Source: an uncultured Candidatus Rokubacteria bacterium
Lineage (GTDB): Bacteria; Methylomirabilota; Methylomirabilia; Rokubacteriales; CSP1-6
Assembly: GCA_963758635.1 (NCBI GenBank)
Contig: CAVWWD010000002.1
Coordinates: 82,724-146,723 of the forward strand
Direction: 5' to 3'
DNA length: 64,000 bases
Shown here: positions 20,878 to 34,597 of the stretch, one piece after another
How positions within the stretch are numbered: the first letter of the stretch is position 1
Layout of the letters: each line of letters begins with the position of its first letter
Notes under the pieces: generated by a model
The model's input: the letters and a program-made list of their open reading frames with translations, nothing else
Databases searched by the model: none
What the model was told of the DNA's origin: nothing
Translations under genes and position numbers: made by a program

Positions 20878-22289
20878 CTAGCGGGCGGCGGAGACGGGCG
20901 CGACGGCGTCCAGCATCCAGCGGGCCATCGCCGTCACGCGGGCGTCCTCGTGCTGCTGGCCCATGATCTGGACGCCGACCGGCAGGCCGCCGACCGCCAG
21001 CAGCGGCAGCGTGACCACGGGCGCGAACAGCATCGAGCTCGGCGCGTTGAAGACGAAGTCGCCGGTGGGACGCGGCGCCAGCGGCTGGCCCGGCACGTCG
21101 CCGGACCACAGGGGGGCGGGACCCGGGCACGACAGCGTGATGATCGCGTCGGCGAGGGGAGCCACCGCCTCGTGGCGAAGCTGCGCCGTGGCCCGCTCCA
21201 TCAGGGCCGCGCGGTAGTCGTCAGGCGTCATGGTCTCGGCCTTCTCGAGCGTCGCCTTTGCCCGCGCGCTCACGCCGTCCGGATGCTGGTCGACCAGGTT
21301 GCGGATCGCCCAGCGGTTCTCCCAGCTCGTGATCGCGTTGCACACCGCGCGTCCGTCGGCGATGGCCTGCTCGAGACTCTCGATCCACCGATGATCGCGG
21401 CGACCGAGGACCGTGACTCCGGTGCTCCGCAAACCTTCCAGCAGCGTTTCGAACGCCCGGCGGCTCGGGGCATCCAGCGCGGCCCAGCCCTCGGTCTCGA
21501 GGACGATCACTCGCTCCGGCTTCGCGGCGGCCGGCGGCGCCGGCGGTCCGAAGAGCCCGGGGCAGCCGCGATCGCCGCCGGCGCGGCGCGCGATCTCGAT
21601 CGCCACCTGCCACATATCCTCGAGCGAGCCGGCGTGCACGCCATGCGTGCTCATGCTGGTCGCCTGGCGCTCCCCGCGGTTGATCCCCCCTGGGTCGGCT
21701 TGAGCGCCACGTTGCCGCAGTACGCGGCGGGCCGGATGATGGAGCCGCCCACCTGCGTGCCGATGGCGGCCGGCAGCATCCGGGCGGCGACGGCCGCGGC
21801 CGAACCGGACGAGGAGCCGCCGGCGGTGCGCGCCGGATCGAAGGGATTCGTCGTGGGGCCGGGATGCGAGCCGCCCAGCTCCGCGGTCACCGTCTTGCCG
21901 ACGATGACCGCCCCCGCCTGCCGCAGCGCCCACACCGCCGCGTTGTCCCGCTTCGGGAAGTTATCGCGATACGCGTCGCAGCCCATCTGCGTGGGCATGT
22001 CCTTCGTCTCGAGCAGGTCCTTGATGCCGATGGGCAGGCCGTCGATCGGCGAGCGCACGTGTCCGTCCTTCCAGCGCCTGGTGCTCTCGTCCGCCGCCTC
22101 GCGCGCGCCGGCCAGGTTCAGCGTCACGAACGCCCGCACGACGGCCTCGCGCTCCCCGATCGTCTCGAGGCAGCGCTCCAGGTACGCGCGGGGCGTGTCG
22201 GAGCCGTCCCGGAAACGCGCGATGGCGTCGTGGAAGGTCAGCGCCCGGCACTCCCGGGGGTCGTAGGTCTTCGGTGCCGTGGTGATCAT
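20878..22289 (-). CDS. Amidase signature family protein (frameshift ~21690)
   Basis: [48 protein letters not shown]; shift at a G6 run. Confidence 0.9.
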
Positions 22290-22482: not shown

Positions 22483-25400
22483 GTGACTGATCGCCTGCCG
22501 ATCTTGCTGCACTCCGCCTTGTACGCGGCGCTGCGCCGGCAGCAGCCCGAGCGCCGCTCTCGCTTCCGCCGTCTCGCCGACAGACTGGCCACCGGCCGCT
22601 GGGGCGGCGGCACCCGCGTCAAGAAGCTCCGCGGCGTGGCCAGGCCGGTGTTCGAGGCGCGCCAGGACGGCGGCGATCGCGTGCTGTTCACCTTCGCGCG
22701 CTCGGCGGCGGCCGAGGAGAACGCGCTCGTCACGTACCTCCAGGTGTGGGACCTCGTGCCCCACGACGACGTCTCGGCGGCGGCGGCACGCATCAACCGC
22801 GCGGCGGAGGCGGAGTTCCTCGACTACGACGTGCTGGAGTCCGAGACGACGGACGCCCCGCCTCCCCACGCCGGCATCACCTTCGACGAGGTCCCACCCG
22901 TCGCCGCGGGCCAGGCCGCCGGCCTGCTGGAGCTGATGCTGCCGCCCGAGGACTTCCGCCCCGCCGCCCGCGAGGAGATCGAGGGTGGGGTGCGGTGGTA
23001 CCTCCTGCCCGAGCGCCTCCTCGTGGACGACCCGCGATGGCAGGGCCTGATGGACGAGGACAGCGACGAGCTCGAGCTGAAGCTCACCGCCGAGCAGTAC
23101 GCGGTGGTTCGGGCGGCGGGCCCGCTCTTGCTCTCGGGCAGCGCGGGCAGCGGCAAGACCACGATCGCCGTCCACCGGATCGCCGCGGCCGCCGCCACCG
23201 GCGCCGCGCCCCTCCTGTACGTGACCTACAGCGGATGGCTCCGGGACCACGCTCGGCGCCTCTACCGGGCGCTGTGCGCGTGCCGCGGCGACGAGCCCGG
23301 CGCCGCCCCGGACTTCCTCACGATGGAGGAGCTGTACCGCTCGCTCCTCGGGCCCGCGGGCGACAGCGTCGAGCGGCTGGCCGACTACGCGGAGTTCGCG
23401 CGGTGGTACGCGGGCGGCTTCCGCCGTCGCGACGCCGCGCTGGCCTGGGAGGAGATCCGGAGCATCGTCAAGGGCGCGTGCCTGGACGACGGCCGCGACC
23501 TCCTCCGCCGGGACGAGTACGAGACGCTCGGCAGGAAGCGGGCTCCGCTCTTCGTGGCCGAGCGGCCCCGCCTGCACGAGGTGGCCCGCCGCTGGCAGGA
23601 GCACCTGCGCGCGGCGGGGCGCGCGGACGAGATCGATCTGTGCCGGAGGGCGCTGACCGCGCATCGTGCGCGCCCGCGCGCCTGGAGCCACGTGGTGTGC
23701 GACGAGGCGCAGGACCTCGCCGAGCTGCAGGTCGAGCTGCTGCTGCGGCTGCACGCAGGCCCCCGGCTCGAGGGGCTGTTCCTGGCCGGCGACCCCCAGC
23801 AAGTGATCAACCCCAGCGGCTTCCGGTGGGCCGAGGTGCGCACCGCCATCCGCGAGCGCGCCCGCGGAGGCGCGCGGCCGGTGGACATCACGTCGCTCCG
23901 GCGGAACTTCCGTAGCGTGCGCGGCGTGGTCGAGCTGGCGAACGCGCTCCTCGCCCTCAAGCGCGAGCGCACCGGCCGGAGCGACGGCGACGAGACCGAG
24001 GAGGCGGCGGTCGTCGGCCCGACGCCCATCCGCGTGGAGGGCGGCGAGGAGGAGCTTGCCGCCGCCGTGGCCGGGTTCGGCCCTCGATGCGCCGTGCTGG
24101 TGGGCTCGGAGGACATGCGCGGCCGGCTGCAGGCGCTGCTCGACACCACGCGCATCTTCACCGTCCAGGACGCCAAGGGGCTGGAGTTCGACGTGGTCGT
24201 GCTCTGGGGCCTGGTCGCCGCGGATCCGGACCCGTGGACCCGGCTCCTCGATGCCGCCCTCGACCTGAGAGAGGACCCGGCGTGCCGGCGCGCGCTCCAT
24301 CACCTTTACGTGGCGGTCACGCGCGCGCGCCGCCACCTGGCCGTGCACGAGCCGCCGGGGGCGCCGCCCGTCTGGACCAGCCGGTGGCTCGGAGCGCGGC
24401 TCGACTCCGAATCGTCGGCCTCGCTCGCGCGACTCTTCGTCCGGACGGCGGCGCCCGCCGAGTGGCTCGGCGAGGCCACGTACTTCCTCGAGCGCGGCCG
24501 CCATCGCCAGGCCGCGGAGTGCTTCCGCCGGGCTGGCGAGGCGCGGCGCGAGACGGAGTGCCTGGCCTTGCACCACGAGCAGGCGGGCGACGGCGCGGAG
24601 GCGGCGCGGCTCTGGCTGGACCTCGGCGAGCGTGCGCGGGCGGCCCGCTGCCTCGAAGCATCCGGCGCGTGGGTGGAGGCGGGGCGCCTGTGGATGGAGG
24701 AAGGCGACGTGGCCGCGGCGCGCCGCTGCCAGGCCCGCGCCGCGGAGCGCACCCGCGACTGGGCGTCGGCCGGCGACGCCTGGGAAGCGCTCGGCCAGTG
24801 GGCGGATGCCGCCCGGTGCTGGTCGAACGGCGGTCAGCGTGGCCGGCAGCTCCGGTGCCTCGGCGAGGGCGCCGAAGCGGAGCAGCGCTGGGCGGACGCC
24901 GCGCGGCACTGGGAGGAGGCTGAAGCCTGGGCCCGGGCCGACCGCGTGCTGGCAGCGCGCGGGGCGAGAGGCGGACGCGTCGCGCACGGAGGCGATGGGG
25001 CACGAGAGCGCCGGGCGCTTCGCCGACGCCTCGCGCGCCTGGCGCGCGGCCGGGAACGAGGCCCGCGCACGCCGGACCGGTGCGACCGCCGCGGAAGACG
25101 ATGAGCGCTGGGAAGACGCCGCCGCCCTCTGGGAGGATCTGGGTGAGATGCCGGCCGCGGCACGCGCGTGGCGACGCGCTGGCCGACTACGGGAGGCGGC
25201 GCTCTGCGAAGCCCGGATGCACGAGGCCGCGGGCCGGCACGCGCGCGCGGCGGAAGCGCTCGAGGCCGCGGGTGAGCTGACCGCCGCGGCCACGGCGTGG
25301 CGCCGCGCGCACGAGGCCAGCCAGCCTCCCTCGAAGACCGTCCCGCTCACGCTTCCGCCCGACGCGGCCCACCGGTGGACGGAGGGCGGCCGGCCCGCGC

Positions 25401-26353
25401 GGCTTCTCGCCAGGACCGCGGCGGCGGCCCGCTCGCACGCCGCACGCGACGCGCGCGTCCGAGGGCTCGCCTGCGCGGTGGCCGCGGCCGAGAGCGCCGG
25501 CAGGCTCGACGAGGCCGAGGCGCTGTGGACCACCCTCGGCGATCCGCACCAGGCGCTGCGCTGCCAAGTCCAGCGCCTCGAGCGCGACGGCGCGCTCGGA
25601 GAGGCCGCCGCCCTGCTGGAGCGTCACGGGCTGTTCCCGGCCGCGGGCCGAGCCTGGCGCGCCGCCGGCGACACGGCGGGCGTGACTCGATGCGAAGCCC
25701 GGCGGCTCCAGAAGAAGCGGCGCTGGCAGGAGGCGGAGGCGCTCTGGCTCTCCATCGGCGCCCAGGCCGAGGCGGCCCTCTGTCGCGCCCGAGAGATGGT
25801 GCTTCGCGGAGACTACCGAGCCGCCGCGGATGCCTTCGCCCAGGCGGGCCAGCCGGGGATCGCCCTCGAGCTCTCCGTGCTCGCCGCCCAGCAAGAGGGA
25901 GACTGGGACGGAGCGGTGGCCGTCGCGACGACCGGTGGCCGCACCGATCTCATCCGCCGCATCCGGAAGGCTCAGCAGGCCGCAGCCGCGCAGCCAGGTC
26001 CGCGACAGGCCGCGTCGGATGAACGCCGGGGAGACGGCAAAGAACACTCGGGCCGCCGACCCCCGCGAGCCCGAAACGCCGCGCCGGCCCGCAGGTCGAA
26101 GTCGATGCGGGCGCTGTCTCGATCGAGACACCACCGGCGGGCCGGCGCGCGCGCCGCGGCTGCCTCCGACATCGAGAGGCTGGTCGCCACCGTTCGGCGA
26201 CACCCGGGCGCGCGAAGCGAAGACCTCGCCCGCCTCTCGGGGATCCAGGGGCCGCGTCTGGCCGCGTTGCTGCGCGCGGCGGTGGCCGCCGGACACGTGG
26301 TCCGGTCCGGAGCCACGCGGGGCACGCGCTACTGGCCCCGGAGAGAGGGCTGA
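22483..26353 (+). CDS. RelE-like domain + SF1 (UvrD-like) helicase + TPR-like repeats + C-terminal HTH (frameshift ~24940)
   Basis: GSAGSGKTT, VVCDEAQD, GDPQQ, LRRNFRS, AKGLEFD, LYVAVTRAR; repeated A..W..AG...A.RC units; ARSEDLARLSG...RGTRYW. Confidence 0.85.
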
Positions 26354-27024: not shown

Positions 27025-27366
27025 TCAACCACTGTCGTTGCCTGGCGCAGGACCGTCGCCTGGACCGATATGACGCCGGCTTTGGGGACAGCCCTGACAC
27101 AGCGTCCCGTTGATCTGGAATGGCCCCTGCTCCGTGACGAACAGTCCCAGCCATTCGTCTCGCATCGCGGTCTCCGGCGCGTAGGTAGCGAGATAGAAAG
27201 GCACGCCATCAGGCTTCATGGCTGCGCCGAACCGCGAGACAAGGCGAGATCCTGACGGCGTAGTGGTTGAGGCGAAGACCCGTGCCATCTCTCGCACGCG
27301 CGCAATCTGTTCGTCCAGCAACGGGAAGACCGAGGGCGGGCCACCGTCAGTCAGTTGGCATGACAT
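27025..27366 (-). CDS. Hypothetical protein, possibly degraded
   Basis: AAGGAG RBS; 113-aa ORF with no recognised motif. Confidence 0.3.
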   Translation of the reverse strand: MSCQLTDGGPPSVFPLLDEQIARVREMARVFASTTTPSGSRLVSRFGAAMKPDGVPFYLATYAPETAMRDEWLGLFVTEQGPFQINGTLCQGCPQSRRHIGPGDGPAPGNDSG

Positions 27367-30300
27367 GGGGGCAACTCCTTTGCCCGCGTCGAAACCGTGC
27401 GCGGGCTCCGGACGATCGGCGGTCTAAGGTTAGGGGGCGTGTGGGGAACTGCTGCCAGGGATTCCTCGGCTTCGGCAAGCCAGCGGCTCATCTGCAGGGT
27501 ACGGTACAGTTCCCCCGCGGCCGAGATGCTCCTGGCCGCGTCGTCCGCCCTTCCCGCCGCAAGCTCCGCGTGGCCGAGGCCGAGGCGGCAATGGGCCAGC
27601 AACGGATTGAGCTCCAGCGACTGGGCCAGCTCGATGGCCCGTGTAAAATGTGACTCGGCTTCCTCGGGGTTCTTGTCGGCCAAGCAGGCGAGCCCTAGGG
27701 CTCGCTCGGCGTATCCTTCGTATCCGAGCTCCCCGTGCTGTCGAGTACGCTCGAGCGCGCCGCGCGCAAGGTCCAGACCTTCGGCCACGCGGCCGGCCAG
27801 CAGATACGCCTCGGCCAGACGCGCCTCCCAGACCGACTTACCCGCCTGGATCCTCACGTCAGTGCTCTGCTGGACGGCGAACGACAGGAGCGGCAGGCCC
27901 TCGTCGATCCTCCCGATCAGGACGTATCCGTATCCAAGGTGGGAGCTGGCCACACTCACCATGTGCGGCAGGTCCTGTGCCCGACACGTCTCGAGGGCTA
28001 CCTCGGCGAGCGCAATAGCGGACTCGATGGAGCCTTGTCGAAGTAGCGCGAAAGCCCAGGAGGAGGTATTGGTGTGGATAAGATCGAAGGGGCCGCCGAA
28101 GGAGTCCAACAGCAGCCGTGCCTCGCGTCCGTAAAAGCTCGCCTGATCGAACAATCCCAGCTCGGCAGCGGCAATGACCATCCAGCCGCGAGAGATCACG
28201 GACGGAAGGCCGGGCATTCCGTACCGCTCGCGCGCTCGCGGTCCAGCGAGATAGTCGACGTTGTGCTCGAGTACGCCGAGGGCGGCGCGATTGCGCCCGC
28301 CCGCATGGAGGGCTTGGGCGAGGTGAATACGGGGGACGACCTGAAGATCCGGCCGATCCAGGCGCGCGGCCAGCGGGATCGCGTGCTCGGCATGCTCTAT
28401 CGACTGGACGAGCTGACCGGAGAGATACGAGTGCCCGGCTCGGAAGCCCGCGATGCGTCCCAGCCGGAACTCATCGTTGATGCGCTCGGCGAGGGCCTCC
28501 GCTTGGGTCAGGCACTGGCCGACCTGCTGCAGATCCTGCAACGCGAGGAACGCGGACCGCAGATCCAGCAGGCTGTCGATGGCGTGCTGGATCGTGTCGA
28601 CGGATTCCGGCAGATGAGCCAGCGCATCCAGCGTTTGCTGCGCGTACGCAACCGCCTCGCGGATGGCCGGCCTGCCGAGCGCCTTCTCGGTCGCCAGCCG
28701 CAGATAGGTGACCGCTCGCTCCCAGCGCTCTCCGCGCACCGCGTGATGGCTGAGGCGATCCACATGCTCAGGCAGCCGATCGGCGTAGACCTTCTCGATC
28801 GCCGCCAGGATCGCAGCGTGCAGCAGCGCCGGCGGTCCTGCAGAACGCTGCCGTACGCGACCTCGTGGGTCATCGTGTGGGTGAAGGTTAGCTCGAGTAC
28901 CGGGAAGAGGTTCGCCTCGTAGAGGAACTCCGCGCTTCGAAGCAGGGCGACCTGCTGGCGGATTTCGGCGTCGGGAAGACCGCTCACCGCCCGCAGAAGC
29001 TCGAAGGTACGTCCTTGCCGATGACGGCCGCGGACTGCAGCAGTCGCTTCGTGTCGGGAGGCAGGCGGTCGATCTGGGCCGCCAGGACCGCTTGCACGGT
29101 CTCGGGCACCTGGATGCTCTCCGAGGCGAATGGACGAGTTGATGGCGCCCTGACTCTCCGGCCAGGGCGCGCGTCTCGAGAAGAGCACGGACGCTTTCCT
29201 CGAGGAAGAACGGATTGCCGTCGGTGCGTGCAATCAACGCGCGCTTGACCGCATCGAGACTAGGGTCGTTGCCGAGTAGCCCTTCGAGGAACTTCTGCGA
29301 ATCCGCGGGCACGAGGGGATCCAGCCGGAGCTGGGTGGAGAAGGTACGCCCGGCCCAGGTGTGTTCGAAGTCCGGCCGGTAGTTCAGCAGCAGCAGGATA
29401 TGCGCGTCGGACAGATGTTCGATGAGATCGTCTAGGAGCGCGAAGGTCTGCGGATCCGTGATGTGGAGATCTTCGAAGATAAGGCAGACCGGCTGCACGA
29501 GGCTCTCGCGGAGCAGGAGCGTCCTCGTGGCCTCGATCGGTGCGCTGGCGCCGCTCGCGCGGATCGAGGCGTTCGAAGGGGCTGCCCGCGGGAAGGGCGT
29601 CGAGCAGGGCCAGCAGTGGTGGCACGATGCGACGCAGACCCTCCTCGAGGGTGAGCACGATGCCCGTGACCTTCGCCTGTATGCTCCGGACATCATCGCG
29701 GCTATCGATCTTGAAATAGCCGCGTAGGAGCTCGACGAGCGCGTGGTAGGCCGCCAGTCGCCCCTGGGACAGTGAGGCGCTCTCAAGTACGAGCCACTTC
29801 TGATGCGCCTGTCCGCGCACGAATTCGTAGAAGAGGCGAGACTTGCCGACGCCGAGTTCCCCGATAACGGCCACGAACTGGCGGTGCCCCGCGTGAACAC
29901 GTTCGAGCGCCCGGGTCAGCTGTCGCATCTCGTCGGTGCGCCCGACGAATGGCGATAGACCCCGCGCGGCCGTCGCCTGCAGGCGCGAGCGCACCTTGAT
30001 CGCCCCGGTAAGTTCGTAGACGCTCAGGGCGCGGTTGAGTCCCTTCACCGGCACAGGCCCCAGTGCTCGAACCTGGATGTACCCCTCGCTCAGGCGAAAG
30101 GTATCCGACGTGAGCAGAGTCGTCCCAGGCCGCGCCAGCTGCTCCATCCGTGCAGCGAGGTGGGTCGTTTCGCCGACCGCGCTGTAGTCCATGCTCAGAT
30201 CAGTGTGGACGGATCGCACGACAACTTCACCCGAGTTGAGACCGACCCGGATCTGGAGATCGAGACCTTCCGTGCTTCGTACATGCTCGGCGTATGCGGC

Positions 30301-30822
30301 GACGCGCTCGTGCATTCGGAGGGCGGCGTAACAAGCGCGGATGGCATGACATACTCGTGGGCCACCGGGGCGCCGAAGGGCGCCATGATGCCGTCGCCCA
30401 TAACCTGGTTTACCAGCCCTTGTACTCGGGAACCGCCTCGACGATTCGCTCCGCCACGGCATCAAGGAATCTGCGTGCCTCCTCGGGGTCGCGGTCGGTG
30501 AGCATCTCGATGGGGAGAGCCGTTGAGATCCAGCGAACAGGACGGTAACTTGCTTGCGCTCCCCTTCTAGCAGGGCCAGGCGTATTGAGGAGTCCTTCGA
30601 CCTGATAGGGGGGAGGGACCTGCTGGGCGATCTGCACCTTCAGTCGGTCGGCCTGGTCGTGCTGAGCCGAAGCGCGGTGCCGCAGGCCTTGCAGTAGCGA
30701 TACGAGAAGGCATAGCTTGTCCGGCAGCGCTCGCAGGTCGTGACGAGTTTTGCGCCGCAATCGGGGCAGAAGCTCGCCTCCGCGGGCGCTCGCTTGTGGC
30801 AGCCCGAACAGCGCGTGGTCAT
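27351..30822 (-). pseudogene. Zinc ribbon-class III adenylate/guanylate cyclase-AAA-TPR protein, multiply frameshifted
   Basis: CSGC..CPDC/CERC..CKAC, GERKQVT, MGDGIMA.FGAP, RVGLNSGEVV, GETTHLAARMEQ, GELGVGKS, FEDLH, GNPFFLEE, TPR tail; many frame changes. Confidence 0.85.
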
Positions 30823-31235: not shown

Positions 31236-31583
31236 CCTAGCTAGTCTAGAGGGTGACGGCGGCGGCGACGGCCGCTACCGCCACGAGAAGGAGGGCCACG
31301 AGTCCGACGAACAGCAAGTCGCTGACGCTGCCCCCGGCCGGCCTCACCCGGCGACATCGTCCCGCGGAGGCGCAGCAGGGCCGGGTTCTTCTGATTGGCC
31401 TTCCACGCGGCGTCGAGGGCAGTTGCACGAACTGCCGCAGCTACACCGGTCCGGTTGACTGAACACGCAAGAGGAATGGCCCGGCCACAAGCCGGACCGC
31501 GACTACGTGGAAGCGCGGAGACTTGCGGCCACAGGCGGAAGGGCGCACGATCGGCCCCACCCGCGATCACAGGAGGAGCGCCC

Positions 31584-32453
31584 ATGGCGACGACCGTTGG
31601 AAGCGGCAGCTACCAGTACGAGCTGAACGAATCCTGGGCGAGGCTGCCAACCGGCTGGGCGTGGGGACAGGTCAGCGCGGTCGCGACCGACTCGCAGGAC
31701 CGCGTCTACGCCTTCCAGCGAAAGGATCCCCCGGTCGTCGTGTTCGATCGCGACGGCAACTATCTGACCTCGTGGGGTCACAGCGCCATCAAGGATCCGC
31801 ACGGCATCGCCATCGTCGACGACCTGGTCTATCTGACCGATCGCGACGACCACGTCGCCCTCAAGTTCACGCTGGACGGCAAGCCCCTGATGATCCTCGG
31901 GACGCGCGGCCAGCCCTCGGACACGGGGGCCACCAAGGACATCGAGCTTCCACCGCGCTCGGCCGGGCCCTTCAACAAGCCCACCGAGATGGTCCCGGCC
32001 CCGTCGGGCGATCTCTACGTCTCGGACGGCTACCGGAACAGCCGGGTGCACCGCTTCTCGAAGGACGGCGCCCTGATCTCCTCGTGGGGGACGCCGGGCA
32101 AGGAGGCGCCGGGCGAGTTTCACCTGCCGCACAGCCTCTGGGTGGGGCCCGACGGCTCCGTCTACGTCTGCGATCGGGAGAACAGCCGGATCCAGGTCTT
32201 CACCGCCGAGGGCAAGTTCGTCTCCCAGTGGCGCGACATCAAGAAGCCGACCGACATCTACTTCAACAAGCAGCAGGTGGCCTACGTCAGCGAGCAGCGG
32301 CCGTCGATCAGCATCATGGATCGGAGCGGCACGGTGCTCGCCCGCTTCGACACGCCAGGCTCGGGCCACGGGCTCTGGGTCGATTCCGCCGGCGACATCT
32401 ATCTCGCCGAAGCCGGGGGCAAGCGGCTCACCAAGTACGTCCACAAGCACTGA
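31584..32453 (+). CDS. NHL-repeat beta-propeller (PAL-like family)
   Basis: VATDSQDRVY, PHGI, YVSDGYRNSRVHRF, PGEFHLPH, DRENSRIQVF; AGGAGG RBS. Confidence 0.9.
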   Translation: MATTVGSGSYQYELNESWARLPTGWAWGQVSAVATDSQDRVYAFQRKDPPVVVFDRDGNYLTSWGHSAIKDPHGIAIVDDLVYLTDRDDHVALKFTLDGKPLMILGTRGQPSDTGATKDIELPPRSAGPFNKPTEMVPAPSGDLYVSDGYRNSRVHRFSKDGALISSWGTPGKEAPGEFHLPHSLWVGPDGSVYVCDRENSRIQVFTAEGKFVSQWRDIKKPTDIYFNKQQVAYVSEQRPSISIMDRSGTVLARFDTPGSGHGLWVDSAGDIYLAEAGGKRLTKYVHKH

Positions 32454-32479
32454 GACCGGCGCCACACCGGAGGAGAGAC

Positions 32480-33537
32480 ATGCCTGACGTGCTGTACGTA
32501 GGTCTCCAGGACGGCGACAAGATCTTGACGTTCACGATCGACAGCGGCGCCGGCACGGTGGCCCTCCAGGCCGAGACGCCGGCCGCCGGCGCGCCCTCGG
32601 CCTTCGCAGTGAGCCCGGACCGGCGCGTGCTGTTTGTCGGGTATCGCGGGACCCCGGCGATCGAGAGCTGTCGCATCGACTCGGCCAGCGGCGCGCTGAC
32701 CTCGCTCGGGCGCGTCGCCACCGAGCACCCGCCGACCTATCTGGCCACGGACCGCGCGGGCAAGTACCTCCTGTCGGCCTACTACCAGGGTGGCTATGCT
32801 GCCGTGCACGCGCTCGGAACAGATGGTGCGGTGCGCGGCCCGGCGGTCGACCGGCAGAACACCGCGCCCGGAGCGCACGCGATCCTGACCGACCCGTCGA
32901 ACCGCTTCGCCTTCGTGCCGCACATCGCGCGCCAGAACGACAACGTCCTGGAGCCGCCGAAGAACATCCCCGGCCCCAATTTCATCGCGCAGTTCCGGTT
33001 CGATCCGGCCAGTGGGCGCCTCAGCCCCAACGCGCCGTTCAAGCTCGAGCCTCGCGAGCCCATCGGGCCGCGGCACTATTGCTTTCATCCCACGCTCGAC
33101 GTCGCCTATTTCTCGGACGAGCAGGGGTGCAGCGTCACGGCCTACCGCGTCGATCGCGCCGCGGGAACTCTGTCCGCCATGGAAACGACTCGATCGCTGC
33201 CCGACGGCGTCACCGTGCGCAATACCTGCTCACAGATCCACCTGACGCCGTCGGCCCGGTTCCTCTACGTCGGCAACCGCGGGCACAACAGCATCGCTGG
33301 CTTCGCGGTCGATCGGGCGACGGGGCGCCTGACGCCGGCCGGGCACGCTCCGACCGAGGCGGTCCCCACCGCCTTCGGTCTCGATTCCGGCGGGAGTCTC
33401 CTGTTCGCCGCCGGGACCGCATCCGGGCGGCTCGCCTCGTACCGGGTCAACGGCGAGACCGGCGCGCTGACCCCCTGGAGACCCACACGGTCGGACAGCG
33501 GCCGGCCGCGGTGCTGGCGGTACCCCTCGGGGGCTGA
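32480..33537 (+). CDS. Lactonase family protein (6-phosphogluconolactonase-like; frameshift ~33475)
   Basis: AHAILTDPSNRF, GPRHYCFHP, LYVGNRGHNSIA; GGAGG RBS. Confidence 0.88.
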
Positions 33538-33580
33538 TCTCCTCGCGGCCGCCCGTCACCCGATGGCCACGGAGGGAACC

Positions 33581-34597
33581 ATGCCCACCGGAGATGCCGA
33601 CTGGCTCGCGTTGACCCCGGAACCGACCCTGGAGTCTGAGCTTCCCATCTGTGACGCGCATCATCACCTGTGGGAATTCCGACCCGAGCCGGTGCCCTAT
33701 CAACGGTATCTCCTGGCCGAGCTCGCCGAGGATCTCGGGAGCGGTCACAACGTGCGGGCAACGGTGTTCATCGAGGTCAAGGCGCGATATCGCTCCGATG
33801 GCCCGGAGGACATGCGTCCCGTAGGGGAGGTCGAATTCGTCGAAGGCCTGGCGACGGAGAGCGCCCGTGGTCGGTACGGGCGCACTCGGATGGCCGCCGC
33901 CATCATCGGCTACGCCGACTTGAAGCTGGGCGAACGCGTCGCTCCGGTGCTGGACGCGATGCAGGCCGCCAGCCCTACCCGGTTCCGCGGTGTCCGACAC
34001 TCCGTCGGGTGGGATGCCAGTCCGGACCTGGTGAAACGAGAGATCCAAGGCGTGCTGTCCAGCGAACAGTACCGGGCGGGCGCCCGGGAGTTAGCGCGCC
34101 GAGGGCTGTGCCTGGAGAATTCGCTCTACCATCCCCAGCTGGAGGAGCTGGCCGCGTTCGCCCGAGCGGTGCCCGACCTCACCATCGTCCTGAACCATAT
34201 CGGCGGTCTGGTTCGGATCGGCGCATACGCCAACCGGGATGACGAGGTGTTGCCCGCCTGGAGGCGCGGTATTGCCGCGGTCGCGGCCTGTCCCAACGTG
34301 ATCCTCAAGCTCGGTGGGGTCGGCCAGCGCCGGTTCGGCTTCGACTGGCATGCGCGCGCCAAGCCCATAGACTCGGAAGAGTTGGCCGCCGCGCTGGCCC
34401 CGTTGATGCACTACTGCATCGAGCAGTTCGGCCCCCGCCGTTGCATGTTCGAGAGCAACTTCCCCGTGGACAAGGTGTCCTACTCCTACAACGTCCTGTA
34501 CAACGCCTTCAAGCGGCTGTCCCAGGGCTACTCACCCGCGGAGCGCGCGGCCTTGTTCCACGACACCGCGGCCCGCGTCTATCGACTCGCCGTCTGA
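33581..34597 (+). CDS. Amidohydrolase_2 family protein
   Basis: ICDAHHHLW, RFRGVRH, IVLNHIGG, RCMFESNFPVDK; GGAGG RBS. Confidence 0.9.
   Translation: MPTGDADWLALTPEPTLESELPICDAHHHLWEFRPEPVPYQRYLLAELAEDLGSGHNVRATVFIEVKARYRSDGPEDMRPVGEVEFVEGLATESARGRYGRTRMAAAIIGYADLKLGERVAPVLDAMQAASPTRFRGVRHSVGWDASPDLVKREIQGVLSSEQYRAGARELARRGLCLENSLYHPQLEELAAFARAVPDLTIVLNHIGGLVRIGAYANRDDEVLPAWRRGIAAVAACPNVILKLGGVGQRRFGFDWHARAKPIDSEELAAALAPLMHYCIEQFGPRRCMFESNFPVDKVSYSYNVLYNAFKRLSQGYSPAERAALFHDTAARVYRLAV

Follow-up and report, generated by a model that had tools for sequence, protein, structure and literature searches.

The stretch of DNA analysed here (the window) comprises 64,000 nucleotides of an uncultured Candidatus Rokubacteria bacterium (GCA_963758635.1, contig CAVWWD010000002.1, positions 82,724 to 146,723). 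On its forward strand, positions 22483..26353 encode a protein of 1,289 amino acids that combines a RelE/ParE-fold domain, a superfamily 1 (SF1) helicase, a long helical repeat region and a predicted winged helix-turn-helix (HTH). In this assembly, one extra base at 24938..24941 splits the gene into two overlapping open reading frames (ORFs) in different frames, 22483-25104 (873 aa) and 24632-26353 (573 aa). The two ORFs are one gene. The base is absent in the contigs of all four sequencing runs compared, which originate from three studies; it is missing at 24938 (X1, X2 and X5) or 24941 (X4), and runs X1 and X2 possibly represent the source sample itself. The split is therefore an assembly error and the frameshift artefactual. 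The last 469 amino acids, encoded after position 24944, align from their residue 1-3 onward, starting at residues 817-831 of 29 single-chain homologs. Single-chain homologs and contigs without the extra base rule out two separate genes, and the contigs also rule out a true pseudogene for close strains. A preliminary description, made from the sequence alone, had read the locus as one protein of about 1290 amino acids with an ORF track split by a single indel. This was borne out by the read-through length; the homologs carry both halves in one chain and not as separate genes. A near-identical record, P0040, has frameshifts of its own. RNA-library contigs of one run span 30 of 30 bins of the gene; contigs cannot show transcription.

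The first 819 amino acids matched 301 of 8,000 scored candidates in a protein search; the best 120 of these matches were listed. Among these listed matches, a close group shares 61-77% identity and has mostly 1,197-1,334 amino acids, and a Thermoanaerobaculia-type group shares 45-51%. Among the close relatives, one carries the label Candidatus Rokuibacteriota. A search with the RelE domain gave 154 clusters at 50% identity. Among the best 150 listed, 85 have at least 800 amino acids; the helicase is present in 85/85 of them and the repeats in 84/85. The 65 shorter matches were excluded from this count. A stand-alone or split RelE domain was considered for the short matches (16/914 candidates; 65/150 listed) and rejected, as they look mostly like fusion fragments. 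As judged from these sequences, the fusion of RelE domain, helicase and repeats is near-obligate. Named members include Acidobacteriota and Cyanobacteria, and sequence comparison makes the gene the founder of a family that has no name yet and extends over several bacterial phyla. In a quick helicase tree, 45 family rows fell on one side of a branch with moderate support only (Shimodaira-Hasegawa-like approximate likelihood ratio test 84). In a deep sub-clade (P0242, P0262, P0271), 55-280 extra residues precede the RelE domain, and the tails are very long (1,661-1,899 aa).

The next kin are proteins with a RelE-like domain, a helicase lacking subdomain 2B and ankyrin repeats. They are encoded on Methylosinus pOB3b2 (L057:6491-9364) and Shigella flexneri pCP301 (CP0234, L056:3350-6262). 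They score 243-246 bits on the family helicase profile; on the RelE profile, the scores are 29.6 and a marginal 10 bits. Annotations of the genes of this ankyrin branch go no further than hypothetical, UvrD or ankyrin protein. Shigella CP0234 adjoins shf-rfbU-virK, and 100 of 130 weak plasmid matches are from Shigella.

Domain architecture

The RelE/ParE-fold domain covers amino acids 5-97 (22495..22773). Its AlphaFold model has a predicted local distance difference test (pLDDT) value of 88 and a predicted template modelling score (pTM) of 0.85. An exhaustive VIA structure search of 48,161 chains placed members of the RelE/ParE superfamily at all ranks from 1 to 23. The best match has a Z-score of 8.6 and a root-mean-square deviation of 2.6 A over 86 residues; among unrelated chains, the highest Z-score is 5.0. 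RelE and YoeB hold the top ranks, and ParE structures follow at ranks 7, 9, 15, 17, 19 and 21. RelE, YoeB and ParE also fill all top 12 rows of a Foldseek search with weak scores (best E-value 8.5e-3, none at 1e-3). In the ESM Atlas, the domain matches an unnamed RelE-labelled cluster at 0.92 and ParE_like/YhaV at 0.79-0.81. A Pfam scan gave no RelE/ParE match to the domain at E 0.1, a PADLOC scan did not recognise it and sequence searches of the PDB returned no relevant match. The RelE/ParE-like N-terminus proposed in the preliminary description is thus present as a fold.

The putative RNase active site consists of K47, E58, R60, R66 and H94 (22621..22764; codons starting at 22621, 22654, 22660, 22678 and 22762). 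These five residues are invariant in 82/82 distant full-length relatives, which are the 85 long proteins minus three close ones. Hydrophobic residues of the core are less conserved (L35 in 77/82, W40 in 72/82). HigB-TAC uses K58, E66, R68, R77 and K95 for catalysis, and the general acid of YoeB is H83 (available text of PMC9098466, PMC12620021). Mapped by strand position and not by superposition, the five invariant residues agree in strand and order with the HigB-TAC pocket and YoeB H83. The N-terminal helices are basic, with a net charge of +3 to +8 for amino acids 11-37 in 97 aligned rows, and resemble the rRNA-binding patch of HigB-TAC as far as it is described in these sources (PMC9098466, PMC12620021).

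The domain profile also retrieved five ORFs of 88-104 amino acids with a like signature, three of them directly behind a MazE/AbrB gene, which relates the domain to ordinary antitoxin-linked toxins. These stand-alone ORFs (L028-L032) have no Pfam match and are likely an uncurated toxin-antitoxin family. At the gene itself, no small co-oriented coding-like ORF adjoins that could be an antitoxin; the RelE domain is fused, unlike the two-gene layout of type II toxin-antitoxin systems. The domain is followed by a folded extension and linker (amino acids 98-195, 22774..23067) with a conserved helix at 108-114 and a strand at 117-122.

The helicase spans amino acids 196-630 (23068..24372). Two RecA-like domains and motifs I-VI are present, as in SF1 helicases of the UvrD/PcrA/Rep type: Walker A at 219, Ia at 245, II at 407, III at 436, IV at 473, V at 564 and VI at 611. 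The complete set of SF1 motifs noticed in the preliminary description is intact. Subdomain 1B is present. Motifs IV and V are only 91 amino acids apart, so subdomain 2B is absent; the distance from III to V is 127-129 amino acids in 4/4 members checked. Larger family members carry insertions in 1B instead of 2B. A model of the first 819 amino acids (pLDDT 90.6, pTM 0.85) matched PcrA/UvrD folds best (PcrA E-value 6.8e-12), with HelD at rank 7. Upf1-type helicases rank below UvrD/PcrA with E-values of about 1e-7 to 1e-8. Template modelling scores of helicase matches are at most 0.39 over the 819-residue model. In Pfam, NACHT and nSTAND3 appeared only below the cut-off, at Walker A; the NTPase fold is SF1 and not STAND.

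An alpha-helical TPR/clathrin-like solenoid of about 505 amino acids follows (24454..25978). The 819-residue model includes its residues 658-812 with pLDDT values mostly of 90-98. The repeat periods are 30, 43 and 73 amino acids, measured on the homolog P0004, and differ from the 34 of TPRs; the TPR_2 score of 17.5 bits stays below the Pfam cut-off of 27. Hence, the solenoid of the preliminary description was recovered in the model, but it is not made of canonical TPRs. The repeats are rich in Ala, Arg and Glu. The enrichment of Trp described earlier is evident (4.5% versus 1.8% in the helicase), that of Cys only weak (2.4% versus 1.6%). The solenoid is the least conserved part of the protein. 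Between groups, identity is 0.39 in the repeats and 0.48-0.51 elsewhere; RelE domain and helicase are equally well conserved. In a tandem gene pair, the tails share 37-69% identity compared to 70-87% in the first 700 amino acids. Among 22 members scanned, some tails consist of TPRs and others of clathrin-like repeats; in several members, a MalT-like TPR protein is fused on. Some other members, including cyanobacterial ones, have canonical TPRs above the cut-off.

A low-complexity linker (25979..26167) connects the solenoid to the C-terminus. Contigs of related strains have compensating indels in this linker, at 26082-26136. The predicted winged HTH (26168..26338) ends with G-x-T-R-G-T-R-Y. The C-terminal 60 amino acids match HTH_24/IclR clusters of the ESM Atlas at 0.92 and have a conserved wing motif; a Pfam match is absent. 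The HTH is present in 27 of 28 full-length close relatives, and neither in the Thermoanaerobaculia-type proteins (0/80) nor in distant members (0/82). The winged HTH of the preliminary description accordingly stays a prediction for one clade, where it is an addition outside the core system, and is no general part of the family. In a protein of 165 amino acids (P0133, four members), residues 1-70 of the family protein are joined to the C-terminal HTH, likely by an internal deletion.

Distribution and genomic surroundings

The gene is rare in the host phylum, with 2 of 251 genomes and none of the 104 near-complete ones. In the window, it is surrounded by genes for an amidase, a hydrolase, ATPase-type regulators and an adenylate-cyclase-like protein. 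In genome G189, ilvD lies upstream of the gene. Frame breaks and run-ons also affect the neighbours, namely the amidase (20878-22289), an adenylate-cyclase/ATPase/TPR regulator (27351-30465) and a lactonase/amidohydrolase run (31395-34597); these are typical of an error-prone assembly. Several contigs of related strains lose the match just past the stop codon, downstream of 26358, which suggests a variable downstream flank.

The distribution is best resolved in one acidobacterial family. The gene occurs in 38 of 92 genomes, in two copies in six of them, arranged in tandem in five. It is located between selB and argE-hutF; selB is upstream in 23 of 31 loci, two of which are probably from the same genome. 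A gene for a MalT-like TPR protein of about 440 amino acids follows in 22/31 loci (e.g., L005:11466-12791) and is fused to the family gene in several members (P0117, P0120, P0122, P0141, L010, L037). In Thermoanaerobaculia-type loci, both genes were lost together; the host genome has no homolog of the MalT-like gene. Twelve selB loci of non-carriers comprise eight clean empty sites without both genes, two with other DNA, one contig edge and one rearrangement. The presence pattern in the family requires three changes. A functional link to selB was considered and is unsupported outside this one family; in the host genome, selB is located on a different contig from the gene.

Related systems

Fusions of RelE-like domains with UvrD helicases have been described. 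ArmD of ARMADA type II is such a fusion; the available text reports that it is essential for ARMADA defence and that a Walker A mutant is inactive (bioRxiv 10.1101/2025.09.15.676423 / PMC12458937). Both proteins have an N-terminal RelE-like domain and a UvrD-type helicase, a similar spacing from Walker A to B and a comparable K..R..R..HD pattern. In contrast, ArmD is described as a 704-aa subunit of a four-gene operon and is too short to hold a long repeat tail. On the family helicase profile, it reaches 80 bits, compared to 527-542 for true members, and on the RelE profile 11.5. Over the first 653 amino acids compared, the identity is 21%. ArmD has a different motif III and is placed outside the family on a long branch of the quick tree. 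ArmA, ArmB and ArmC are not encoded beside the gene, which lacks the operon of SNF2 helicase, PglX-like methylase and YprA helicase; the genome has only one MZB/YprA gene, and this lies on a different contig. Membership in ARMADA is ruled out by the absent operon and the distant sequence. A RelE-helicase associated with Tiamat Type I-K is described as lying next to Tiamat within a locus of several genes (bioRxiv 10.64898/2026.09.30.754977). It was compared by description only; a repeat tail is not mentioned in the available text.

The ribosome-dependent RNases RelE, YoeB and HigB-TAC (PDB 2KHE, 1WMI, 7V6W, 7NBU) share the fold with Z-scores of 6.7-8.6 and the order of catalytic residues. They are toxins of about 100 amino acids with a separate antitoxin gene, whereas the domain described here makes up the N-terminal 8% of a large chain. 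Cami1 (CARF-RelE, PDB 8PHB, Z-score 6.3) has a RelE domain within a larger regulated protein and is cited in the available text as a translation-blocking RelE fusion associated with CRISPR (bioRxiv 10.64898/2026.09.30.754977). It differs by a CARF domain and control by CRISPR signalling, and has neither helicase nor repeats. PcrA/UvrD/Rep share SF1 motifs and fold with the protein; for HelD, only the fold was seen. Compared to PcrA/UvrD/Rep, the family helicase lacks 2B and has a divergent motif III (GDPQQ-x-x-NPSGFRW). The PcrA/UvrD ORF of the host (1,244-aa frame) has an apparent intein-like insert after motif III (G000:C10:218880-219605, minus strand), as judged by eye.

Avs and NLR proteins have the order effector, P-loop NTPase and repeats, as in the protein here; the NTPase of Avs is STAND-class, here it is SF1. 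In eukaryotic TRANK1, a helicase is followed by repeats. The preliminary description was reminded of TRANK1-type proteins. None of 3,109 candidates of 2,285-5,000 amino acids matched, a weak test that gave no sequence link.

A RelE-SF1-repeat protein was not found in the literature search; subscription papers, the supplements of Tiamat and Gerdes and ARMADA Table S1 were outside this search and may list the family. Anantharaman and Aravind are said to have described a RelE-SF1 helicase fusion in 2003. In the available text of Gerdes 2025 (PMC11980606), helicase, UvrD and TPR are not mentioned, and that of PMC3710099 and PMC3482391 has nothing on a RelE-helicase-repeat fusion. The earlier view that no named system is recognisable requires a restriction: RelE-UvrD fusions are known from ArmD and Tiamat I-K, and only the stand-alone form with a repeat tail looks new.

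Possible functions

We propose with about even confidence that the protein is a stand-alone effector-switch-sensor protein of an NLR-like design with a role in conflict or phage defence. The repeat tail, which varies, duplicates and fuses, would sense a trigger, possibly a phage. The intact ATPase would act as the switch and change state with ATP. The RelE domain, as the effector, would then cut RNA on the ribosome and stall translation. The invariant putative active site fits an active effector. A toxin-type active site conserved without an antitoxin gene suggests a control in cis, for which the extension and linker behind the RelE domain may be the inhibitory element. The patchy distribution with losses, duplication and tail swaps counts for a conflict or anti-phage switch. 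So do the RelE fold, the basic helices, the kinship to the antitoxin-linked ORFs, the near-obligate architecture, the weak conservation of the repeats and the need for ArmD in ARMADA defence.

Several observations weigh against this proposal. The main evidence against defence is the housekeeping context and the vertical inheritance. The trees of the gene and of selB are largely congruent in the acidobacterial family (rho 0.74, 91 non-independent pairs); there, the gene is an old, dispensable and vertically inherited cassette, unlike an island gene. None of ten window neighbours matches PADLOC at 1e-8, and NCBIfam names no defence gene among 90 neighbour ORFs. A close copy is present on only 2 of 72,556 plasmids, both cyanobacterial, and on 0 of 50,697 phages. 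In most proteins, repeats diverge faster than enzymes. The active-site residues were mapped by strand position and not by superposition. ARMADA protects without metabolic shutdown and cells stay viable; in the available text, no RelE-site mutant is reported (PMC12458937). Therefore, the RelE domain of ArmD is not established as a toxin, and a fused RelE domain need not act as a suicide toxin. Both plasmid copies of the family gene, on the other hand, are beside defence-like genes, in one case NsnA/NsnB-like and in the other two NERD-UvrD genes with cas1/cas2. The support for defence is mixed, and the defence association suggested in the preliminary description is weak: it holds for the plasmid neighbours, not for the window or the acidobacterial site.

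RelE-helicase fusions were otherwise known only within multi-gene defence operons. In this case, a repeat tail is attached to a module that stands on its own and whose active site is fully conserved, so that it is testable as a single gene. One question is whether ATP turnover of the helicase gates an RNase at the ribosome, another which signal the repeats sense. A positive answer would reveal a new type of switch for NLR-like immunity or a new route of ribosome surveillance, and provide a function for several hundred proteins labelled 'UvrD' or 'TPR protein'. More tentatively, the effector-switch-sensor proposal may extend to a new class of prokaryotic immune receptors encoded by single genes, with NLR logic on an SF1 helicase that replaces the STAND ATPase, a RelE ribonuclease as the effector and an exchangeable repeat sensor. 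The family described here would possibly form its TPR-like branch, and the genes of the Methylosinus plasmid and Shigella pCP301 (CP0234) its ankyrin branch. Such a class could have served as bacterial template for helicases of the TRANK1 type.

A rather unlikely explanation is an accessory factor for ribosome or mRNA surveillance or stress dormancy that needs no invader. The repeats would dock onto ribosomes that have stalled or onto a host factor, the helicase would remodel RNA and the RelE domain would cut the stalled message. UPF1 with a nuclease partner is a eukaryotic parallel. The long vertical residence beside housekeeping genes, with selB adjoining in 23/31 acidobacterial-type loci and no defence neighbours at this site, is in favour of it, as are the RelE domain conserved like the helicase and the Upf1-type fold matches. 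However, the gene was cleanly lost repeatedly and is found in so few genomes of the host phylum, where selB is on another contig. UvrD/PcrA outrank Upf1, and the plasmid copies reside among defence-like genes.

We consider it unlikely that the protein is a nucleic-acid motor on DNA, R-loops or RNA polymerase, similar to HelD or GajB, in which the RelE domain, instead of being a released toxin, would stay tethered and work as an RNase independent of the ribosome or as an RNA-binding module. The best folds (PcrA/UvrD, then HelD at rank 7), the predicted DNA-binding winged HTH of the host clade and a pTM compatible with a rigid RelE-helicase unit agree with a motor. So does the viability of cells during ARMADA defence, as reported in the available text. 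Yet ribosome-dependent toxins have a matching active-site set and matching basic helices, the closest relatives that stand alone are linked to antitoxins and the HTH is absent from 162 of 162 other members tested. Finally, a regulator or scaffold whose RelE fold has no catalytic role or binds gyrase in the manner of ParE is very improbable: ParE is among the fold matches and Pfam gave no RelE match, but the top fold ranks belong to RelE/YoeB and the invariant K/E/R/R/H set occupies RNase positions in 82/82 relatives.

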